Source of the DNA: a virus
Lineage: Duplodnaviria; Heunggongvirae; Uroviricota; Caudoviricetes
Strand: one strand, 5' to 3'
DNA: 52,915 nt
Virus record (IMG/VR): IMGVR_UViG_2909288124_000003
Location: 1 to 52,915 of that record
The number at the start of each line of letters is the position of its first letter. The first letter of the stretch is position 1. Of the stretch, positions 23,755-40,596 are shown one piece after another. The notes under the pieces were generated by a model. It was not told where the DNA came from and searched no databases. It was given only the letters and a program-made list of their open reading frames with translations. The position numbers and the translations under genes were made by a program.

Positions 23755-23776
23755 AAAAGCCTCAAAAGAGGCTTGA
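23755..23776 (-). terminator. Rho-independent terminator after the Rz/Rz1 lysis cassette (bidirectional hairpin)
   Basis: AGCCTC-TTTT-GAGGCT hairpin followed by TTTTT on the minus strand. Confidence 0.45.
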
Positions 23777-24035
23777 AAAAGATGCAAAAATACTATCTAT
23801 GACGTGACTATAGCTACTTACCCACAGTTTATACAAGCCAAAAATGCTAAATTCAGATAATCCTATTCGCTGAAAAACTACACAAAAGCTACGTTCATCT
23901 TGTCATTAGATAACGTCAGTAACTTTCACTGGATCTAAGCCATTGGTGAAAAAGCTAATTGCATGATGAAGCACTGTAATGTAGCAGTTGAGGTTGTTAA
24001 ATGAGAATCACCCTAACAATGTCAACGGACATTAT

Positions 24036-26210: not shown

Positions 26211-26285
<75 letters not shown>

Positions 26286-26288
26286 ATA

Positions 26289-26364
<76 letters not shown>

Positions 26365-26366
26365 AG

Positions 26367-26440
26367 TGGTCCGCCACCGGAGCCTCGAACCCCGTACCAC
26401 AACACCTGGGTTGCCGCTCTTCCCGATGAGCTAGTGGCGG
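26367..26440 (-). tRNA. tRNA-like sequence with non-canonical anticodon arm (possible pseudo-tRNA or unusual tRNA)
   Basis: Canonical acceptor, D and T arms and CCA, but the anticodon stem pairs only with a 6-nt loop (CCAGGU) in my manual fold; 74 nt. Confidence 0.4.
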
Positions 26441-26442
26441 TC

Positions 26443-26519
26443 TGGTGGCCCTTGCTGGACTTGAACCAGCGACCGGGCGATTATGAGTCGCACGCTCTAA
26501 CCAACTGAGCTAAAGGGCC
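26443..26519 (-). tRNA. tRNA with CAU anticodon, tRNA-Ile2 (lysidine) type
   Basis: Anticodon loop CUCAUAA; sequence resembles E. coli ileX-type tRNA rather than initiator or elongator Met. Confidence 0.65.
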
Positions 26520-34240: not shown

Positions 34241-34459
34241 TCAGCGCTCCTTAATCCGCTTGTTCAGAATCCCGACTTCGAGATACAAATGAGATGGCGT
34301 AAAGCCAAGTTGCTTAACCATCCCCATGGCACCGTTAAAAATTGGCCTGGCTATTTCGTCACAATTCATACCAGGATTAGCCTTGCGTTTAGCGGTTATT
34401 TCCTCGTTGCATCTTCTGGCGATGTTACGAAGCGCGTTACGTGCTTCAACGTCCTGCAT
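34241..34459 (-). CDS. Hypothetical small basic protein
   Basis: ORF in the nin-like region; start uncertain. Confidence 0.3.
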   Translation of the reverse strand: MQDVEARNALRNIARRCNEEITAKRKANPGMNCDEIARPIFNGAMGMVKQLGFTPSHLYLEVGILNKRIKER

Positions 34460-34637
34460 AAGCCACCTCCAGCAGCGGAGCAGGTTTACCAACGTAACCA
34501 GGTGACATGATTACATCAGGATTTTCTGCCTGATTTCCCCAGTGATGCCAGCCGGGAGCCGAACAGCGGCTGAACAACTCAATGCGTGATACATCGCCGT
34601 ATAATTGCTCCAGACGGTAACGCGCTTCTGCTGGCTT

Positions 34638-35114
34638 CTAGCTGTGTTCGCTGAGTGGGCTGTAGATAACCTGTTTTACGCTCGCATTCTGACGCTCAAG
34701 ACCTTTCCCTCTGGTAGCGATTAACAGATCCTCGGTATTGGCGCGGGTATAGTTACCACCGTTCATTCGGGTCTGAGCGTTCAACAGGTCGAGGAAGTCG
34801 TAAAAGTCCTCTACACCACCAGCCTGAAGCGCTTTATTGATATGCTGTTCTGCCAGTGAGTTAAGCTTCACCCAGGTGAATCCCTTCATGGTCCGAACCT
34901 TAAAACCCCATGCCTCAGCCAGTTCGATAGCTTCGCGGGTGTGTGTACCGGTGAACCACATGGCCAGAACGGAATTTTCCGCAGCCAGCTCCCAGACAGG
35001 CAGGCGTTTTATGTCGATGAGTTTCATCGTGCCGTAATGGTTTTCCGCTGCACCATTGCTGATGGTGTTTCCGTATTCCCACGGCGGATCAGCGTAAATC
35101 AGTGAATAGCCCAT
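34638..35114 (-). CDS. DNA N6-adenine methyltransferase (DPPW motif, MT-A70/Dam-like), orphan
   Basis: MGYSLIYADPPWEY catalytic motif. Its ATG overlaps the stop of the upstream ORF, and no adjacent restriction gene is seen. Confidence 0.7.
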   Translation of the reverse strand: MGYSLIYADPPWEYGNTISNGAAENHYGTMKLIDIKRLPVWELAAENSVLAMWFTGTHTREAIELAEAWGFKVRTMKGFTWVKLNSLAEQHINKALQAGGVEDFYDFLDLLNAQTRMNGGNYTRANTEDLLIATRGKGLERQNASVKQVIYSPLSEHS

Positions 35115-35557
35115 TAACGACCTCCCGAAAATCGACCAGCCAGATAGCACCCGTCTTCAGAAATAACCGCTGGTTTAGCCAGGCCAAGACAGCGCTGACG
35201 TTCTGCCAGAATTGCTGCTCGCTCTGATTCAATAGCTGACACGCTGAACGCTTGCATGTATATCGTCGCGGCACGGTGAAAGAGGCCTTTCGACTCCACA
35301 CATTTCGCCGTTTCCATCAGGGCGCTGACTTCAGGGGTTGGTTCAAAAACCTCGAAGTGGCAATCTGCTGGCGGTTCTGCGTAATAGCGATAACACTTTC
35401 CCGCGTGTTTACGTGTTGCACGCTTTGTATCAACTAGTCGGCATACGGCACGCTGAACCGACTGAATATCGTATTCTGTCAGTGCTGCAGCTATCTGCTT
35501 GTTGGTTAGCCCAGGGTTCTGAGCTACAAACATCTGGATAGTTTTCAGTAAGCTCAT
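35114..35557 (-). CDS. Hypothetical protein with N-terminal HTH, replication-module position
   Basis: 147 aa between the O-like gene and the methylase, translationally coupled to the methylase. Confidence 0.4.
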   Translation of the reverse strand: MSLLKTIQMFVAQNPGLTNKQIAAALTEYDIQSVQRAVCRLVDTKRATRKHAGKCYRYYAEPPADCHFEVFEPTPEVSALMETAKCVESKGLFHRAATIYMQAFSVSAIESERAAILAERQRCLGLAKPAVISEDGCYLAGRFSGGR

Positions 35558-37407: not shown

Positions 37408-37665
37408 TTAAAGTTGACTATTGTTGTTAGCGGAAGGTATGCCGTCATTTTTGTTCGGATAAATATCAGGTCGTAATTGATGGGGAGTTACTACCCATCC
37501 GCCCCATTGGCAGAGTTGAATAACTCTTTCAGAAGGTACTCGGTTCTTTGCAATCCAGTTCGCAACAGATTGAACTGATTGGAATTCAAACCGCCTTGAT
37601 ACCTCTGAAATCGACCCGATCGCCTTCACAGCTTTAGCTGTTACATTCTTGTGTTGAGATGACAT
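37408..37665 (-). CDS. Cro-like HTH regulator (YdaS family)
   Basis: 85 aa, start trimmed to MSSQHKNVTAKAV with RBS AGGAGA; divergent from the repressor gene. Confidence 0.65.
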   Translation of the reverse strand: MSSQHKNVTAKAVKAIGSISEVSRRFEFQSVQSVANWIAKNRVPSERVIQLCQWGGWVVTPHQLRPDIYPNKNDGIPSANNNSQL

Positions 37666-37770
37666 GTGTTCTCCTATGACTAAGCCTGCATCAATACTAC
37701 TCATAGTAGCAATTATTAGCAACTTAAAATAGAAATGACAACTATGCCTTGTGCGCTTAATCTTCTACTT
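37666..37770. promoter_or_regulatory. Immunity region (OR-like) between the Cro-like and cI-like genes, with palindrome CTACTCATAGTAG at 37697..37709
   Basis: Divergent intergenic region; the CTACT...AGTAG half-sites recur in the promoter at 38560..38589. Confidence 0.5.
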
Positions 37771-38454
37771 ATGGTGGAAAATGCTAAATACAAAGACTTT
37801 GCCGAAAGGCTAAACAGGTCTCTCCAAGAGCAATCTATTGGAGTTAAAGAATTGTCAGAGTTCAGTGGTGTCTCGTATGAGATGGCGCGGCGCTACACTC
37901 TTGGTACTGCAAAGCCGAGAGATGAGAAGATGATTCGAATTGCAGAAAGACTTGCCGTCTCACCGGCTTATCTTGATTATGGTGTGCCTGTTAATGGTGG
38001 CGACGCGCCAGCCAAAGGCACGGTCAGAATAGAGCAATTGGATGTTCATGCTTCAGCCGGTTCCGGATATATAAACCAACCATTCCCTACAATAGTGAGC
38101 TCAATAGAGATTCCAGAAGAGAGGATCTTCGAGTTGTTTGGTCGTAGAAGCCTTGATGGCATCGTCATGATAAATGTTGATGGCGATAGCATGATGCCCA
38201 CGCTTTGCCCAAAGGACCTGCTTTTCATAGACAGCAAGGTTGAACAATTCAGCGGCGACGGCGTTTATGTGTTCAATTTTGAAGACAGTACGTTCGTTAA
38301 ACGTTTGCAGAAGGTAAAAGGGCGCCGACTGGCAGTTCTTTCAGACAATGAACATTACCCGCCCTTCTTCATAGAGGAGCATGAAATGAATGAACTATAC
38401 ATATTCGGCAAGCTAATCAGATGCTTACCTCTAAAAATGATAGAGTTTGGCTAA
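37735..38454 (+). CDS. cI-like repressor (HTH plus S24 LexA-type autopeptidase domain)
   Basis: N-terminal HTH and C-terminal S24 domain with the GDSM serine and VKRL lysine motifs. The start may be at 37771 instead. Confidence 0.8.
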   Translation: MTTMPCALNLLLMVENAKYKDFAERLNRSLQEQSIGVKELSEFSGVSYEMARRYTLGTAKPRDEKMIRIAERLAVSPAYLDYGVPVNGGDAPAKGTVRIEQLDVHASAGSGYINQPFPTIVSSIEIPEERIFELFGRRSLDGIVMINVDGDSMMPTLCPKDLLFIDSKVEQFSGDGVYVFNFEDSTFVKRLQKVKGRRLAVLSDNEHYPPFFIEEHEMNELYIFGKLIRCLPLKMIEFG

Positions 38455-38473
38455 TAATTAATTCATCAAGAAA

Positions 38474-38494
38474 CCGGCGAAAGCCGGTTTTTTT
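38474..38494 (+). terminator. Rho-independent terminator after the repressor gene
   Basis: CCGGC-GAAA-GCCGG hairpin followed by TTTTTTT. Confidence 0.6.
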
Positions 38495-38559: not shown

Positions 38560-38589
38560 TTGCAATTATCTACTTAAAGTAGCTATAGT
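38560..38589 (+). promoter_or_regulatory. PL-like sigma70 promoter (TTGCAA, 18-bp spacer, TATAGT) with embedded operator palindrome CTACTTAAAGTAG
   Basis: Hexamers and palindrome read directly from the sequence. The palindrome at 38570..38582 shares half-sites with the one at 37697..37709. Confidence 0.5.
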
Positions 38590-38698
38590 CATTGCATCGA
38601 AAGCGAACAGGCAGGACGCCCACGAAGTAGCCGCCGGTGGCATATGAATAACCGGATGATTCGCTGACAGAAAACTTAGGTTGGGGGTAGAGGTTTAC

Positions 38699-39064
38699 AT
38701 GAATCATTTATTCACATGCTCATTTTGCGGAGCAACCGAACTGGGAGCGATAAAGATCGTCGCAAAAGGTGGTAAGGACGAACCTGCCATCTGTTCGGAA
38801 TGCGTAGTCACATGTGTAGAAAAAATGATCCTGACTAAAAAATCAGAGGCTGAAAAACCAACCTCTGATAACGAAATAATATCAGTCGATAAAAAACTAT
38901 TTAAAGAGCTTCTTCAGCTTGTCCTCAACCATCCTGATTTCGGAAGTAAGCTGGCTGCTGTTGACATTGATAGTAGCTCCACATCGACAAGTGAAACTTT
39001 TGTTCGACTTGAGCCAAGCGATTTTCTTCTTCGTCTTAGTGCCGCACTTAGGGCATGCGGGTAA
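38699..39064 (+). CDS. ClpX zinc-binding-domain-like protein (zinc ribbon) in the lambda N position
   Basis: LFTCSFCG...AICSECVVTC resembles the ClpX N-terminal zinc ribbon (CSFCG...ICDECV..C). ATG at 38699 with RBS GGGGTAGAGG. Confidence 0.5.
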   Translation: MNHLFTCSFCGATELGAIKIVAKGGKDEPAICSECVVTCVEKMILTKKSEAEKPTSDNEIISVDKKLFKELLQLVLNHPDFGSKLAAVDIDSSSTSTSETFVRLEPSDFLLRLSAALRACG

Positions 39065-39446
39065 CGTAATTTCCTGGTTATCAAAAGCGCCCATAAACAT
39101 CCCTCTTGGTTGTGTGAGAACACCAAGATACCACCACGCCTGATGTGGTTAAAAGCAGGCCAAAGCAATAACAAGTACTTCCCTGTTCTGGCGGCCCGGT
39201 GTTTTCCCGTGTATTTCCGGTAACCGCCAGCCTTTTTCAGGGCACAACGATGAGAACATTGACGAGCAAGGCATAAGTGCTGGTTCGATTCCAGACAGTC
39301 CCATTTAGTTGGGAGGGTTGGGCAGGGAAAAGGTTCGTTCGATTCGAACACCGGCAATGTTCTCTTCGTTGTGGTGAATTGCAGTCCATCGAGACAACCA
39401 GAAGACAAGCGCCTGGCGCCACAACTTGAATGCTGCGTGAAGTGTT

Positions 39447-39492
39447 GGCGGTACCAGTTACATCCCATCAATTAGCTGGTACCGCCCTTTTT
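39447..39492 (+). terminator. Strong rho-independent terminator inside the structured non-coding region
   Basis: GGCGGTACCAG...CTGGTACCGCC (11-bp stem) followed by CTTTTT. Confidence 0.55.
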
Positions 39493-39678
39493 ACACAACA
39501 GAAAAGGGCATCACCGGGCGACGGGCTCATAACCCAATCCACCCGGGCAAAAAGAAAGCGGTCTCTCAAGCCGCCGACCAATGCAGGTGCCCTTCTCTGT
39601 TGTGTATGGAGAAAGTTCGGCGGTGGCAGCCGCCTTAACTTCGTGTATGGACTAAAACCTTGTGCAGAGGAAAGTTAA

Positions 39679-40596
39679 ATGAAATTACCTAAGTTCCGTA
39701 ACGCAATCGTGTACCGCGCCACACTACCTAGCATTGAAGCTATCGAGGGGCATCTGCTTGAACTCCCCTACTCCGAGATTGGTGAAACTGAGTTTTCACG
39801 CGCCTCTTTTGTGCCAAACCCGATCACTGGCGAATTGGTCACCCCAATATCAGGTGGGTATGCCATCGTGATCCGCCATGATCAGAAAATCATTCCCCAG
39901 CATGTTGTTTTGAAGGAAGCCGCAGCACGGATCCAAAGAATCGAAGATATGTCCGGGAGTAAAATCAAACGTATCGAACGATTAGCAATTATCGACAGCG
40001 TCCGCGTTGACCTGTGTAAACGGGCATTTGTTAAATCAACGCTGATCCTTGCGTTGTACAGCACCAACGAAAAGCTATTAGTGGTCAATACGACCAATAA
40101 AAATATTGCCGGTATGGCTGTGGCTATGCTGGTGAAAGTTGTCGGTTCCGTTAAAACAGAAACAATCAACATTAGCGATATTAAGAACGGTTTAACTACG
40201 CGGTTGAAAAACTATATCAATGGCGTGGCCAATGCTTTTGAAGGGTTTACCGTCGGCAATTATATCCAGCTGTCCCGCCTTGCCGATCAAAATGAAGTTA
40301 TTCGCTACTCAGCTGAACACGACTCAATTCAAAGCGAGCTAGTTGATAGCCTTAATAGCGGCTTTACCGCTGATAAAATGGAGCTAGCAGGATGCGGTGT
40401 ATCGTTCATCCTCACCGAAAATTTCCATTTTTCGCGCATCAATACCCAAGCCCAAACATTCAACGATGAAGATGATAAAGCATTTCAATGGCGCCATCAG
40501 GCCGGGACGGATCTACTCCAATTCAGCAAAGTAGTAAACCTGATGTGTGATCTTCTTTCGTACAAAGAAGAACAGCCACAAAAACCCGCAGCCTAA
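39679..40596 (+). CDS. RdgC-like recombination-associated protein
   Basis: N-terminal F(K/R)N..VYR motif and overall pattern resemble E. coli RdgC; sits in the recombination module. Confidence 0.55.
   Translation: MKLPKFRNAIVYRATLPSIEAIEGHLLELPYSEIGETEFSRASFVPNPITGELVTPISGGYAIVIRHDQKIIPQHVVLKEAAARIQRIEDMSGSKIKRIERLAIIDSVRVDLCKRAFVKSTLILALYSTNEKLLVVNTTNKNIAGMAVAMLVKVVGSVKTETINISDIKNGLTTRLKNYINGVANAFEGFTVGNYIQLSRLADQNEVIRYSAEHDSIQSELVDSLNSGFTADKMELAGCGVSFILTENFHFSRINTQAQTFNDEDDKAFQWRHQAGTDLLQFSKVVNLMCDLLSYKEEQPQKPAA

Follow-up and report, generated by a model that had tools for sequence, protein, structure and literature searches.

A ClpX-like zinc-binding domain in the first PL gene of a lambdoid prophage and a conserved zinc-ribbon gene on the opposite strand

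RESULTS AND DISCUSSION

The window analyzed here is a stretch of 52,915 nucleotides of a Caudoviricetes record (IMG/VR IMGVR_UViG_2909288124_000003, positions 1 to 52,915), in which the first gene behind the PL-type promoter of the immunity region is a 121-amino-acid (aa) open reading frame (ORF) at 38699-39064 on the plus strand. Its product consists of two parts, an N-terminal head (residues 1-45) and a C-terminal tail (residues ~59-121). Judged by its sequence, the head is homologous to the N-terminal zinc-binding domain (ZBD) of ClpX, and the tail is encoded antisense to a small conserved gene for a zinc ribbon, termed ZR in the following. The similarity to ClpX itself is not new, as the translated ORF already bears the name “ClpX C4-type zinc finger protein” in RefSeq/PGAP (WP_001374361.1). 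ZR, which is conserved and was overlooked by both the initial annotation of this DNA and the NCBI annotation, is a new finding.

The head of the 121-aa protein is related to the N-domain of ClpX

The ORF starts at 38699 and not at 38700, with GAGG located 6 nt upstream of the ATG, and encodes an acidic protein (isoelectric point (pI) 5.4, charge -3.4) that matches phrog_20296 over its full length. The initial annotation had noticed that the N-terminus resembles the ZBD of ClpX, and a Pfam comparison, the scores of orthologues and a profile search of the PDB mark the domain as a true relative. It comprises residues 6-41 (38714-38821, plus strand) with Cys7, Cys10, Cys32 and Cys35. In the comparison with Pfam zf-C4_ClpX (PF06689), Salmonella orthologues score 40.1-40.4 bits and thus pass the gathering cut-off of 27 bits, and the window protein itself reaches 26.2 bits (E 7.6e-6, residues 6-41) and stays slightly below it. 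A divergent protein that also combines a ZBD with the tail (P0017) scores 25.9 bits. Using a profile of five phage heads against all PDB sequences, the top seven matches were all ClpX N-domains (E 5.8e-7 to 1.5e-4) and the alignment spans residues 10-47 and thereby the whole domain; the next family was eL43 with an E of 0.03 and one CxxC knuckle only. A search of the PDB with the head as a single sequence matched nothing but ClpX N-domains, weakly and with about 39% identity over 38 residues. In line with this, the NCBIfam ClpX models align at the N-terminus only (model positions 6-74), and there is no AAA+ ATPase module after the zinc finger in this protein of only 121 aa.

The motifs CSFCG and ICSECV are invariant among the five phage heads. 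Furthermore, F9 and M43 of the head align with F16 and I46 of ClpX; the former is an invariant Phe and the latter a hydrophobic position with Met or Leu across the heads. In ClpX, F16 and I46 mark a hydrophobic patch common to lambda O, SspB, RssB and trigger factor, and the N-domain is required for the degradation of lambda O (PMC7804408). The ClpX N-domain also dimerises autonomously and is needed for the recognition of MuA, FtsZ and adaptors (PMC5415555). Between the E. coli and Salmonella versions of the head the ratio of nonsynonymous to synonymous substitution rates (dN/dS) amounts to 0.10-0.12, and the synonymous sites are almost saturated, which argues for a functional protein domain.

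Our preferred interpretation, which we put forward tentatively, is that the free head titrates partners of the ClpX N-domain or pairs with this domain and in this way alters degradation by ClpXP after induction. The gene is present in 39 of 5426 complete E. coli genomes, and a homologue search with the head alone returned two proteins only. The PHROGs families of the 121-aa protein (phrog_20296) and of a 70-aa protein consisting of the head only (phrog_5259) are both labelled “unknown function”. The PADLOC defence models matched neither the 121-aa protein nor ZR, and in the literature on phage ClpX zinc-finger proteins our search came across no work on this family.

ZR is a conserved gene antisense to the tail

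ZR (38897-39094, minus strand, counted from the ATG at the third codon) encodes a basic zinc ribbon of 65 aa (pI 9.7) with the pattern CPxCG...CxCG and a C-terminal amphipathic helix. The gene is antisense to the 121-aa ORF and in register with its last ~55 codons, and a Shine-Dalgarno (SD) sequence AAGAGGGA precedes the third-codon ATG at good spacing. A terminator scan identified an intrinsic terminator with a 12-bp stem and a T-run behind ZR (38832-38869, minus strand). The DNA of this hairpin encodes the linker TKKSEAEKPTSDN of the 121-aa protein on the plus strand, and three lineages, L027 and L004 among them, retain the hairpin with compensatory changes. On the other side, a conserved upstream region (39101-39162, minus strand) contains an extended -10-like element TGGTATCTT (39126-39134) in addition to the SD sequence and is kept across lineages whose ZR proteins share only 62-80% identity. 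Just before the -10-like element this region shows interleaved inverted repeats (GCCTG...CCACC...CAGGC...GGTGG), which may be a regulatory site or a structure.

To avoid bias, lineages were collected by searching viral contigs with ZR and not with the plus-strand protein. Including four loci from earlier, this led to 14 distinct lineages down to 62% identity of the ZR protein, 12 of which were found with ZR and two (L004 and L006) with the plus-strand protein. Start, stop and zinc ligands of ZR are intact in all 14; at another locus a frameshift disrupts ZR and the plus frame alike. Pairwise dN/dS is 0.10-0.24 for ZR versus 0.5-0.8 for the plus frame, and the variable columns fall mostly on the third position of the ZR codons (27, versus 17 on the first and eight on the second position). 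The idea that ZR is the shadow ORF was rejected, as its dN/dS is by far lower than that of the plus frame. The intact reading frame in 14 lineages, the low dN/dS and the signals of its own identify ZR as a genuine gene. The gene is unannotated by PGAP/RefSeq in all 39 carrier genomes, and an older GenBank annotation lists it as hypothetical protein BHT24_10380.

An AlphaFold model of ZR based on 14 sequences has a mean predicted local distance difference test (pLDDT) score of 74.6, versus 44.4 for the plus-strand protein. A fold search with ZR returned only generic zinc ribbons of archaeal ribosomal proteins (best E 0.2), and sequence profiles gave weak matches only, to Lar_restr_allev (E 0.006) and to the YnfU family (E 0.003); the ZR sequence profile found nothing in the PDB.

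Both strands of the overlap are likely kept as coding

The tail (residues 59-121; 38873-39061, plus strand) is the part of the protein that runs antisense to ZR. In all 14 lineages the plus frame is open across ZR, and it always stops at the same place because the ZR Leu codon at this position is always TTA or CTA. All other Leu and Ser codons of ZR vary among synonyms and never become TTA, CTA or TCA. Under the codon usage of the window, a given ZR protein would leave the antisense frame open with a probability of only 6-25% per lineage. We also simulated sequences on the inferred tree using a simple model with selection on ZR alone, in which all 14 plus frames remained open in about 0.1% of runs (P ~0.001). 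The plus-frame dN/dS (omega) of these simulations was 1.4-2.2 versus 0.70 observed. These comparisons make it likely that the same codons are kept as coding on both strands, and constraint on the synonymous sites of ZR for another reason may account for part of the pattern. The explanation that the tail is only a shadow ORF was downgraded after the simulation and the codon-usage tests. The tail family is small: among 1.8 billion cluster representatives, 14 reach E < 1e-10, and the matches are always located at the extreme C-terminus of the protein.

The tail is joined to interchangeable heads

The initial annotation had missed that the tail is a module shared with unrelated N-termini and antisense to a conserved gene. 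We found the tail joined to at least eight unrelated heads. In-frame fusions include the ClpX-like head in two divergent versions (the window type and P0017) and an AlpA-type helix-turn-helix (HTH) head (62.9 bits), and further heads are of the P22_Y8K6 type, predicted coiled coils (P0005, P0008) and others. Each head family also occurs as a stand-alone small phage protein (phrog_5259, 1744, 1273 and 2790). In Salmonella prophages, for example, the ClpX-like protein is 61-66 aa long and is encoded at the same position after an S24 repressor and behind the same leader as in the window. Just after the Salmonella ClpX-like gene we observed minus-strand inserts (L003 2762-3013 and L047 3767-4018), for example a BssS-like 83-aa gene, and the site seems to be a hot spot for genes antisense to PL. 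The module of ZR and tail itself was found in a second context in another phage group, namely between lysis and packaging genes and antisense to the operon. With two contexts and many heads, the module behaves as a mobile antisense cassette that is read into by the upstream gene.

These findings raise the question whether the tail, and perhaps the extended ORF as a whole, mainly serves as a cover for a moron-like antisense ZR cassette, with a head whose function is unrelated to the tail. An operon gene that reads through ZR would keep the PL or late transcripts translated and avoid polarity, head-on transcription and translation would silence ZR during lytic growth or the tail would neutralise ZR, and the ClpX-like head would just happen to be the upstream gene. 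The occurrence of the module behind at least eight heads and in two operon contexts fits this explanation, as does the fact that each head family is also known as a stand-alone phage protein and that the Salmonella head orthologues end before other minus-strand inserts such as BssS. It is also in line with the much stronger selection on ZR than on the tail, with the difference in predicted order between the two proteins mentioned above and with the origin of the plus-strand linker as the antisense of the ZR terminator hairpin. However, selection for mere openness predicts a plus-frame omega near 1.4-2.2 and not 0.70, the position of the plus-strand stop codon is conserved, and a cover would explain the tail and not the role of the well-conserved head. 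All in all we consider this explanation rather doubtful.

The heads are also informative with regard to the idea that the zinc ribbon has no link to ClpX and is only a zinc-stabilised dimerisation module, which pairs tails or partner copies. The autonomous dimerisation of the ClpX N-domain (PMC5415555) would be compatible with such a role, and the coiled-coil heads on the same tail (P0005, P0008) fit a shared oligomerising function. Against this, the tail-less orthologues of 61-66 aa keep the domain under strong purifying selection, and AlpA and other heads are not obvious dimerisation modules. A role in dimerisation alone seems unlikely to us.

The gene follows an operator-bearing promoter and a conserved leader RNA

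A promoter scan identified the sigma70-like promoter TTGCAA-18-TATAGT at 38560-38589 on the plus strand (9 of 12 matches), which confirms its presence downstream of the repressor terminator as initially described. The promoter match alone is not significant, since the scan gave five promoter-like sites in the region versus 3.9 expected. Unlike the promoter match, the recurrence of a palindrome is significant: the spacer of the PL promoter contains the operator-like palindrome CTACTTAAAGTAG (38570-38582), and a second operator-like palindrome, CTACTCATAGTAG (37697-37709), lies just downstream of the -10 element of the divergent cro-side promoter (37741->37712 on the minus strand according to the promoter scan). 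The sequence CTACTNNNAGTAG was matched exactly twice in 52.9 kb, at these two positions, and still twice with one mismatch allowed. As the initial annotation had described, the two palindromes share CTACT/AGTAG half-sites. Related phages that carry other repressors have a wholly different sequence in front of a conserved leader, which itself is unchanged. Upstream sequences that switch with the immunity type next to a constant leader are the pattern of an immunity-specific PL promoter and OL operator. The 121-aa gene is the first one downstream of this operator-bearing PL-type promoter, as had been proposed, and the arrangement of the sequence elements shows it as a PL-proximal gene with predicted immediate-early expression under control of the repressor.

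Apart from this locus, a promoter-like site at 23757-23845 (minus strand) has 15 nt, AAGTAGCTATAGTCA, in common with the PL promoter, consisting of an operator half-site and the -10 element. About 40 nt past this site there is a hairpin with a T-run (AAGCCTCTTTTGAGGCTTTTT), and the site may give rise to a small RNA of ~50 nt under related control.

The leader (38601-38667, plus strand) is a structured RNA of 67 nt with a closing stem and two hairpins. Its 12 variants are 93% identical across phages that differ in repressor and first gene, and the consensus fold shows compensatory changes at three base pairs. A covariance model found one copy of the leader per phage, always at the 5' end of the PL transcript. 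As a single sequence the leader is no more stable than shuffled sequences (z +1.2), and the support for the structure comes from covariation; Rfam contains no match for 38601-38667. The leader occurs together with the ZBD head, with the AlpA head or, in ST64B, without a ZBD-like gene (no tblastn match). Because it is present with differing heads or none that is ZBD-like, the ClpX-like protein is not the obligate partner of the leader. We consider the leader a candidate cis-acting element for antitermination or stability. The put RNA of HK022 is about 70 nt long and forms two stem-loops immediately downstream of PL (PMC9378689). The leader is similar to HK022 putL in its size (67 nt), in the two stem-loops and in its position just past PL, but it has no sequence similarity to the PL region or putL of HK022, and it is a single-copy element without a counterpart downstream of PR according to the covariance model.

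A role as lambda N equivalent is unlikely

Behind the gene there is a terminator-like hairpin followed by CCTTTTT (39188-39237, plus strand; fold z-score -2.8), which is kept in E. coli Nissle and can be regarded as a tL1 analogue. As the first gene past PL with a terminator-like hairpin behind it, the 121-aa gene indeed occupies the position of lambda N. It had also been suggested that the protein might be the N equivalent of this phage. The head contains no Arg, an arginine-rich motif is missing in the whole 121-aa protein, profiles of the N family or of other nucleic-acid-binding proteins did not match it and no boxA-like site was found on the plus strand between PL and the gene. The leader element differs from a nut site in forming a branched structure. 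An acidic protein without an arginine-rich motif and a leader that does not track the head make an N-like role unlikely, and on this point we do not follow the initial annotation.

In a broader sense the protein could be an early transcription regulator, analogous to N or AlpA. By binding to nucleic acid or to RNA polymerase, its zinc ribbon would let transcription pass the terminator at 39188-39237 and continue into rdgC and the recombination and integration genes. This would be in agreement with the position between PL and a terminator-like hairpin, and sister phages hold an HTH of the AlpA family (Pfam, 62.9 bits) at the same position behind the same leader. In P. aeruginosa, AlpA acts as a processive antiterminator, and its repression is relieved when an S24 repressor is cleaved (PMC7969949, PMC9371919). 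However, the acidic protein with its Arg-free head, the missing profile matches and the lack of a boxA-like site in the leader speak against a regulator of this kind, the leader RNA is also found with other heads or, in ST64B, with no ZBD-like gene, and the closest relatives of the head are the protein-binding domains of ClpX. We regard such a regulatory function as improbable.

A possible influence on ClpXP after induction

ClpXP degrades lambda O, MuA, RpoS (via RssB) and FtsZ, and the N-domain of ClpX is the docking hub for adaptors. If the head interferes with this hub, as we tentatively favor, the following course of events is conceivable. Once the CTACT...AGTAG operator is free of repressor, the head would be made first. 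As a mimic of the ClpX N-domain it would soak up partners of the hydrophobic patch, for example the adaptors SspB or RssB and substrates that depend on the N-domain; alternatively, it would pair with the N-domain of ClpX itself. By either route ClpXP would be retuned early in lytic growth. PL transcription and translation across the tail would run head-on into ZR, and this collision probably shuts ZR off or counteracts it at induction.

Several observations weigh against this interpretation. The window protein lies 0.8 bits below the Pfam cut-off for zf-C4_ClpX. AlphaFold, using an alignment of 25 rows, returned an unreliable model of the 121-aa protein (mean pLDDT 44.4) with strands followed by a helix at residues 33-48, an order that would fit the zinc ribbon and C-terminal helix of the ClpX N-domain, and a PDB fold search with this model gave nothing meaningful. 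In sister phages that share the leader and the downstream genes, the head is of the AlpA-type HTH, coiled-coil or another kind; this exchange of heads indicates that the PL-proximal position does not demand a ClpX-related activity. With regard to the antisense part, the ZR terminator is missing from some lineages and the putative ZR promoter is deduced from conservation only. Finally, the low predicted order of the tail and its omega of 0.7, weaker than that of ZR, allow for selection for mere openness.

A far-reaching variant, which we consider very improbable as a whole, would combine both strands into one switch on a single stretch of DNA. In the lysogen, ZR would be expressed from a promoter of its own and serve, for instance, in exclusion or regulation. 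At induction, PL transcription would collide with ZR, and the tail of the PL product, encoded by the complement of the ZR codons, would counteract or capture ZR. The head would engage ClpX by docking the complex on it or would block the ClpX adaptors. Should this be true, the phage would have turned a copied recognition domain of the protease itself into an adaptor or anti-adaptor of ClpXP, and the swapped heads (AlpA, coiled coil and others) would represent different uses of one tail.

Prophage setting and neighbouring genes

The window is a lambdoid prophage, and 1.3 kb around the locus are 100% identical to E. coli FAM21845. The same immunity region, including the locus described here, is present in the probiotic strain E. 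coli Nissle 1917. The gene layout is the mirror image of lambda's, with a cII/YmfL-like gene and a cro-like gene on the minus strand and the repressor gene on the plus strand, after which come the 121-aa ORF, rdgC and the recombination/excision genes. In detail, the cI-type repressor gene (37735-38454, plus strand) encodes 239 aa with HTH_3 and Peptidase_S24 domains (Pfam, E 3.5e-17 for Peptidase_S24) and is named LexA family transcriptional regulator by PGAP. By inspection of the sequence, it ends in an intrinsic terminator consisting of ACCGGC GAAA GCCGGT and T7 (38473-38494, plus strand). The cro-like gene (37408-37665, minus strand) is the first in the divergent operon and encodes a YdaS-type HTH protein (Pfam YdaS_toxin, E 4.8e-9; transcriptional regulator in PGAP). 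The next gene of the PL operon after the 121-aa ORF is rdgC (39679-40596, plus strand; Pfam RdgC, E 7e-33, and PGAP). The gene called “phage repressor pr” of E. coli Nissle (PMC5987069) was rejected as a candidate, as the published primers match neither the window nor the Nissle locus.

Two elements of ~115-130 nt are located between the 121-aa ORF and rdgC (39243-39373 and 39492-39606, plus strand), each with a closing stem of ~19 bp that begins with CACAAC and with an internal three-way junction (fold z -5.1 and -6.0). Compared with E. coli Nissle, the window has an insertion of 251 nt (39243-39493) exactly at the CACAAC boundary. The element at 39243-39373 is ~91% identical in Stx2 phages, in SPN1S-like Salmonella phages, where it lies beside tRNA-Arg, and in an Edwardsiella phage. 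Rfam has no match for either element, and the CACAAC-stem element looks like a small mobile structured element. A second terminator-like hairpin (39451-39495, plus strand; GGTACCAG...CTGGTACC and then GCCCTTTTT) lies inside the 251-nt insertion and upstream of rdgC.

Elsewhere in the window, the minus strand carries an MT-A70 family methyltransferase gene (~34450-35115; L001 47-715), which PGAP lists as a pseudogene with an internal stop. There is also a cluster of four tRNAs at 26211-26519 (minus strand) with Gly-TCC, Thr-TGT and Met-CAT; for the fourth, ARAGORN assigns no anticodon and reports “ag”.

Comparison with known systems

Our search of the literature found no described phage protein that copies the ClpX N-domain. 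Should the head be a decoy or anti-adaptor, it would represent a new phage route to retune host proteolysis at induction and a ready-made tool to perturb the N-domain-dependent functions of ClpXP. From the point of view of annotation, ZR is a well-supported case of a conserved protein gene hidden antisense in an annotated gene. The apparent maintenance of both strands as coding bears on the true frequency of overlapping genes in antisense orientation and on the way in which mosaic phage genes arise from separate heads and tails.

The closest known counterpart of the head is the ClpX N-domain itself (PF06689; PDB 1OVX, 2DS5-2DS8), with which it shares the C4 zinc ribbon with CSFCG and ICxECV, whereas a three-residue insertion in the second hairpin (KGGKDEP versus GPSV) is a difference. 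In contrast to ClpX, the phage protein is free, predicted to be expressed from a repressor-controlled early promoter, and joined to an unrelated tail in place of an AAA+ module. Stand-alone phage zinc fingers (phrog_5259, gp38 of Salmonella phage F1055 and prophage protein P0010) have an orthologous head with 58-68% identity, but they end after the zinc ribbon, whereas the window protein extends 60 residues further, in the part encoded antisense to ZR.

With regard to its position, the gene is comparable to lambda N and HK022 Nun, as it is the first PL gene with a conserved leader RNA before it and a terminator after it. However, the 121-aa protein is acidic, has no arginine-rich motif and no sequence or profile similarity to these proteins, and its leader contains neither boxA nor boxB. 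The AlpA family (PF05930) is linked to the locus through sister phages, in which an AlpA-type head joined to this tail takes the same position and follows the same leader; AlpA is unrelated to the ClpX-like head in sequence and fold, and the analogy is therefore only positional.

Antisense regulation is known in lambdoid phages, with lambda oop/cII and P22 sar/ant as examples, and these examples are non-coding RNAs. Like phage morons and like lambda oop and P22 sar, ZR is a small self-contained cassette transcribed against the surrounding operon. Unlike oop and sar, ZR is conserved as a gene for a protein, and the two strands of the overlap both seem to retain their coding function.

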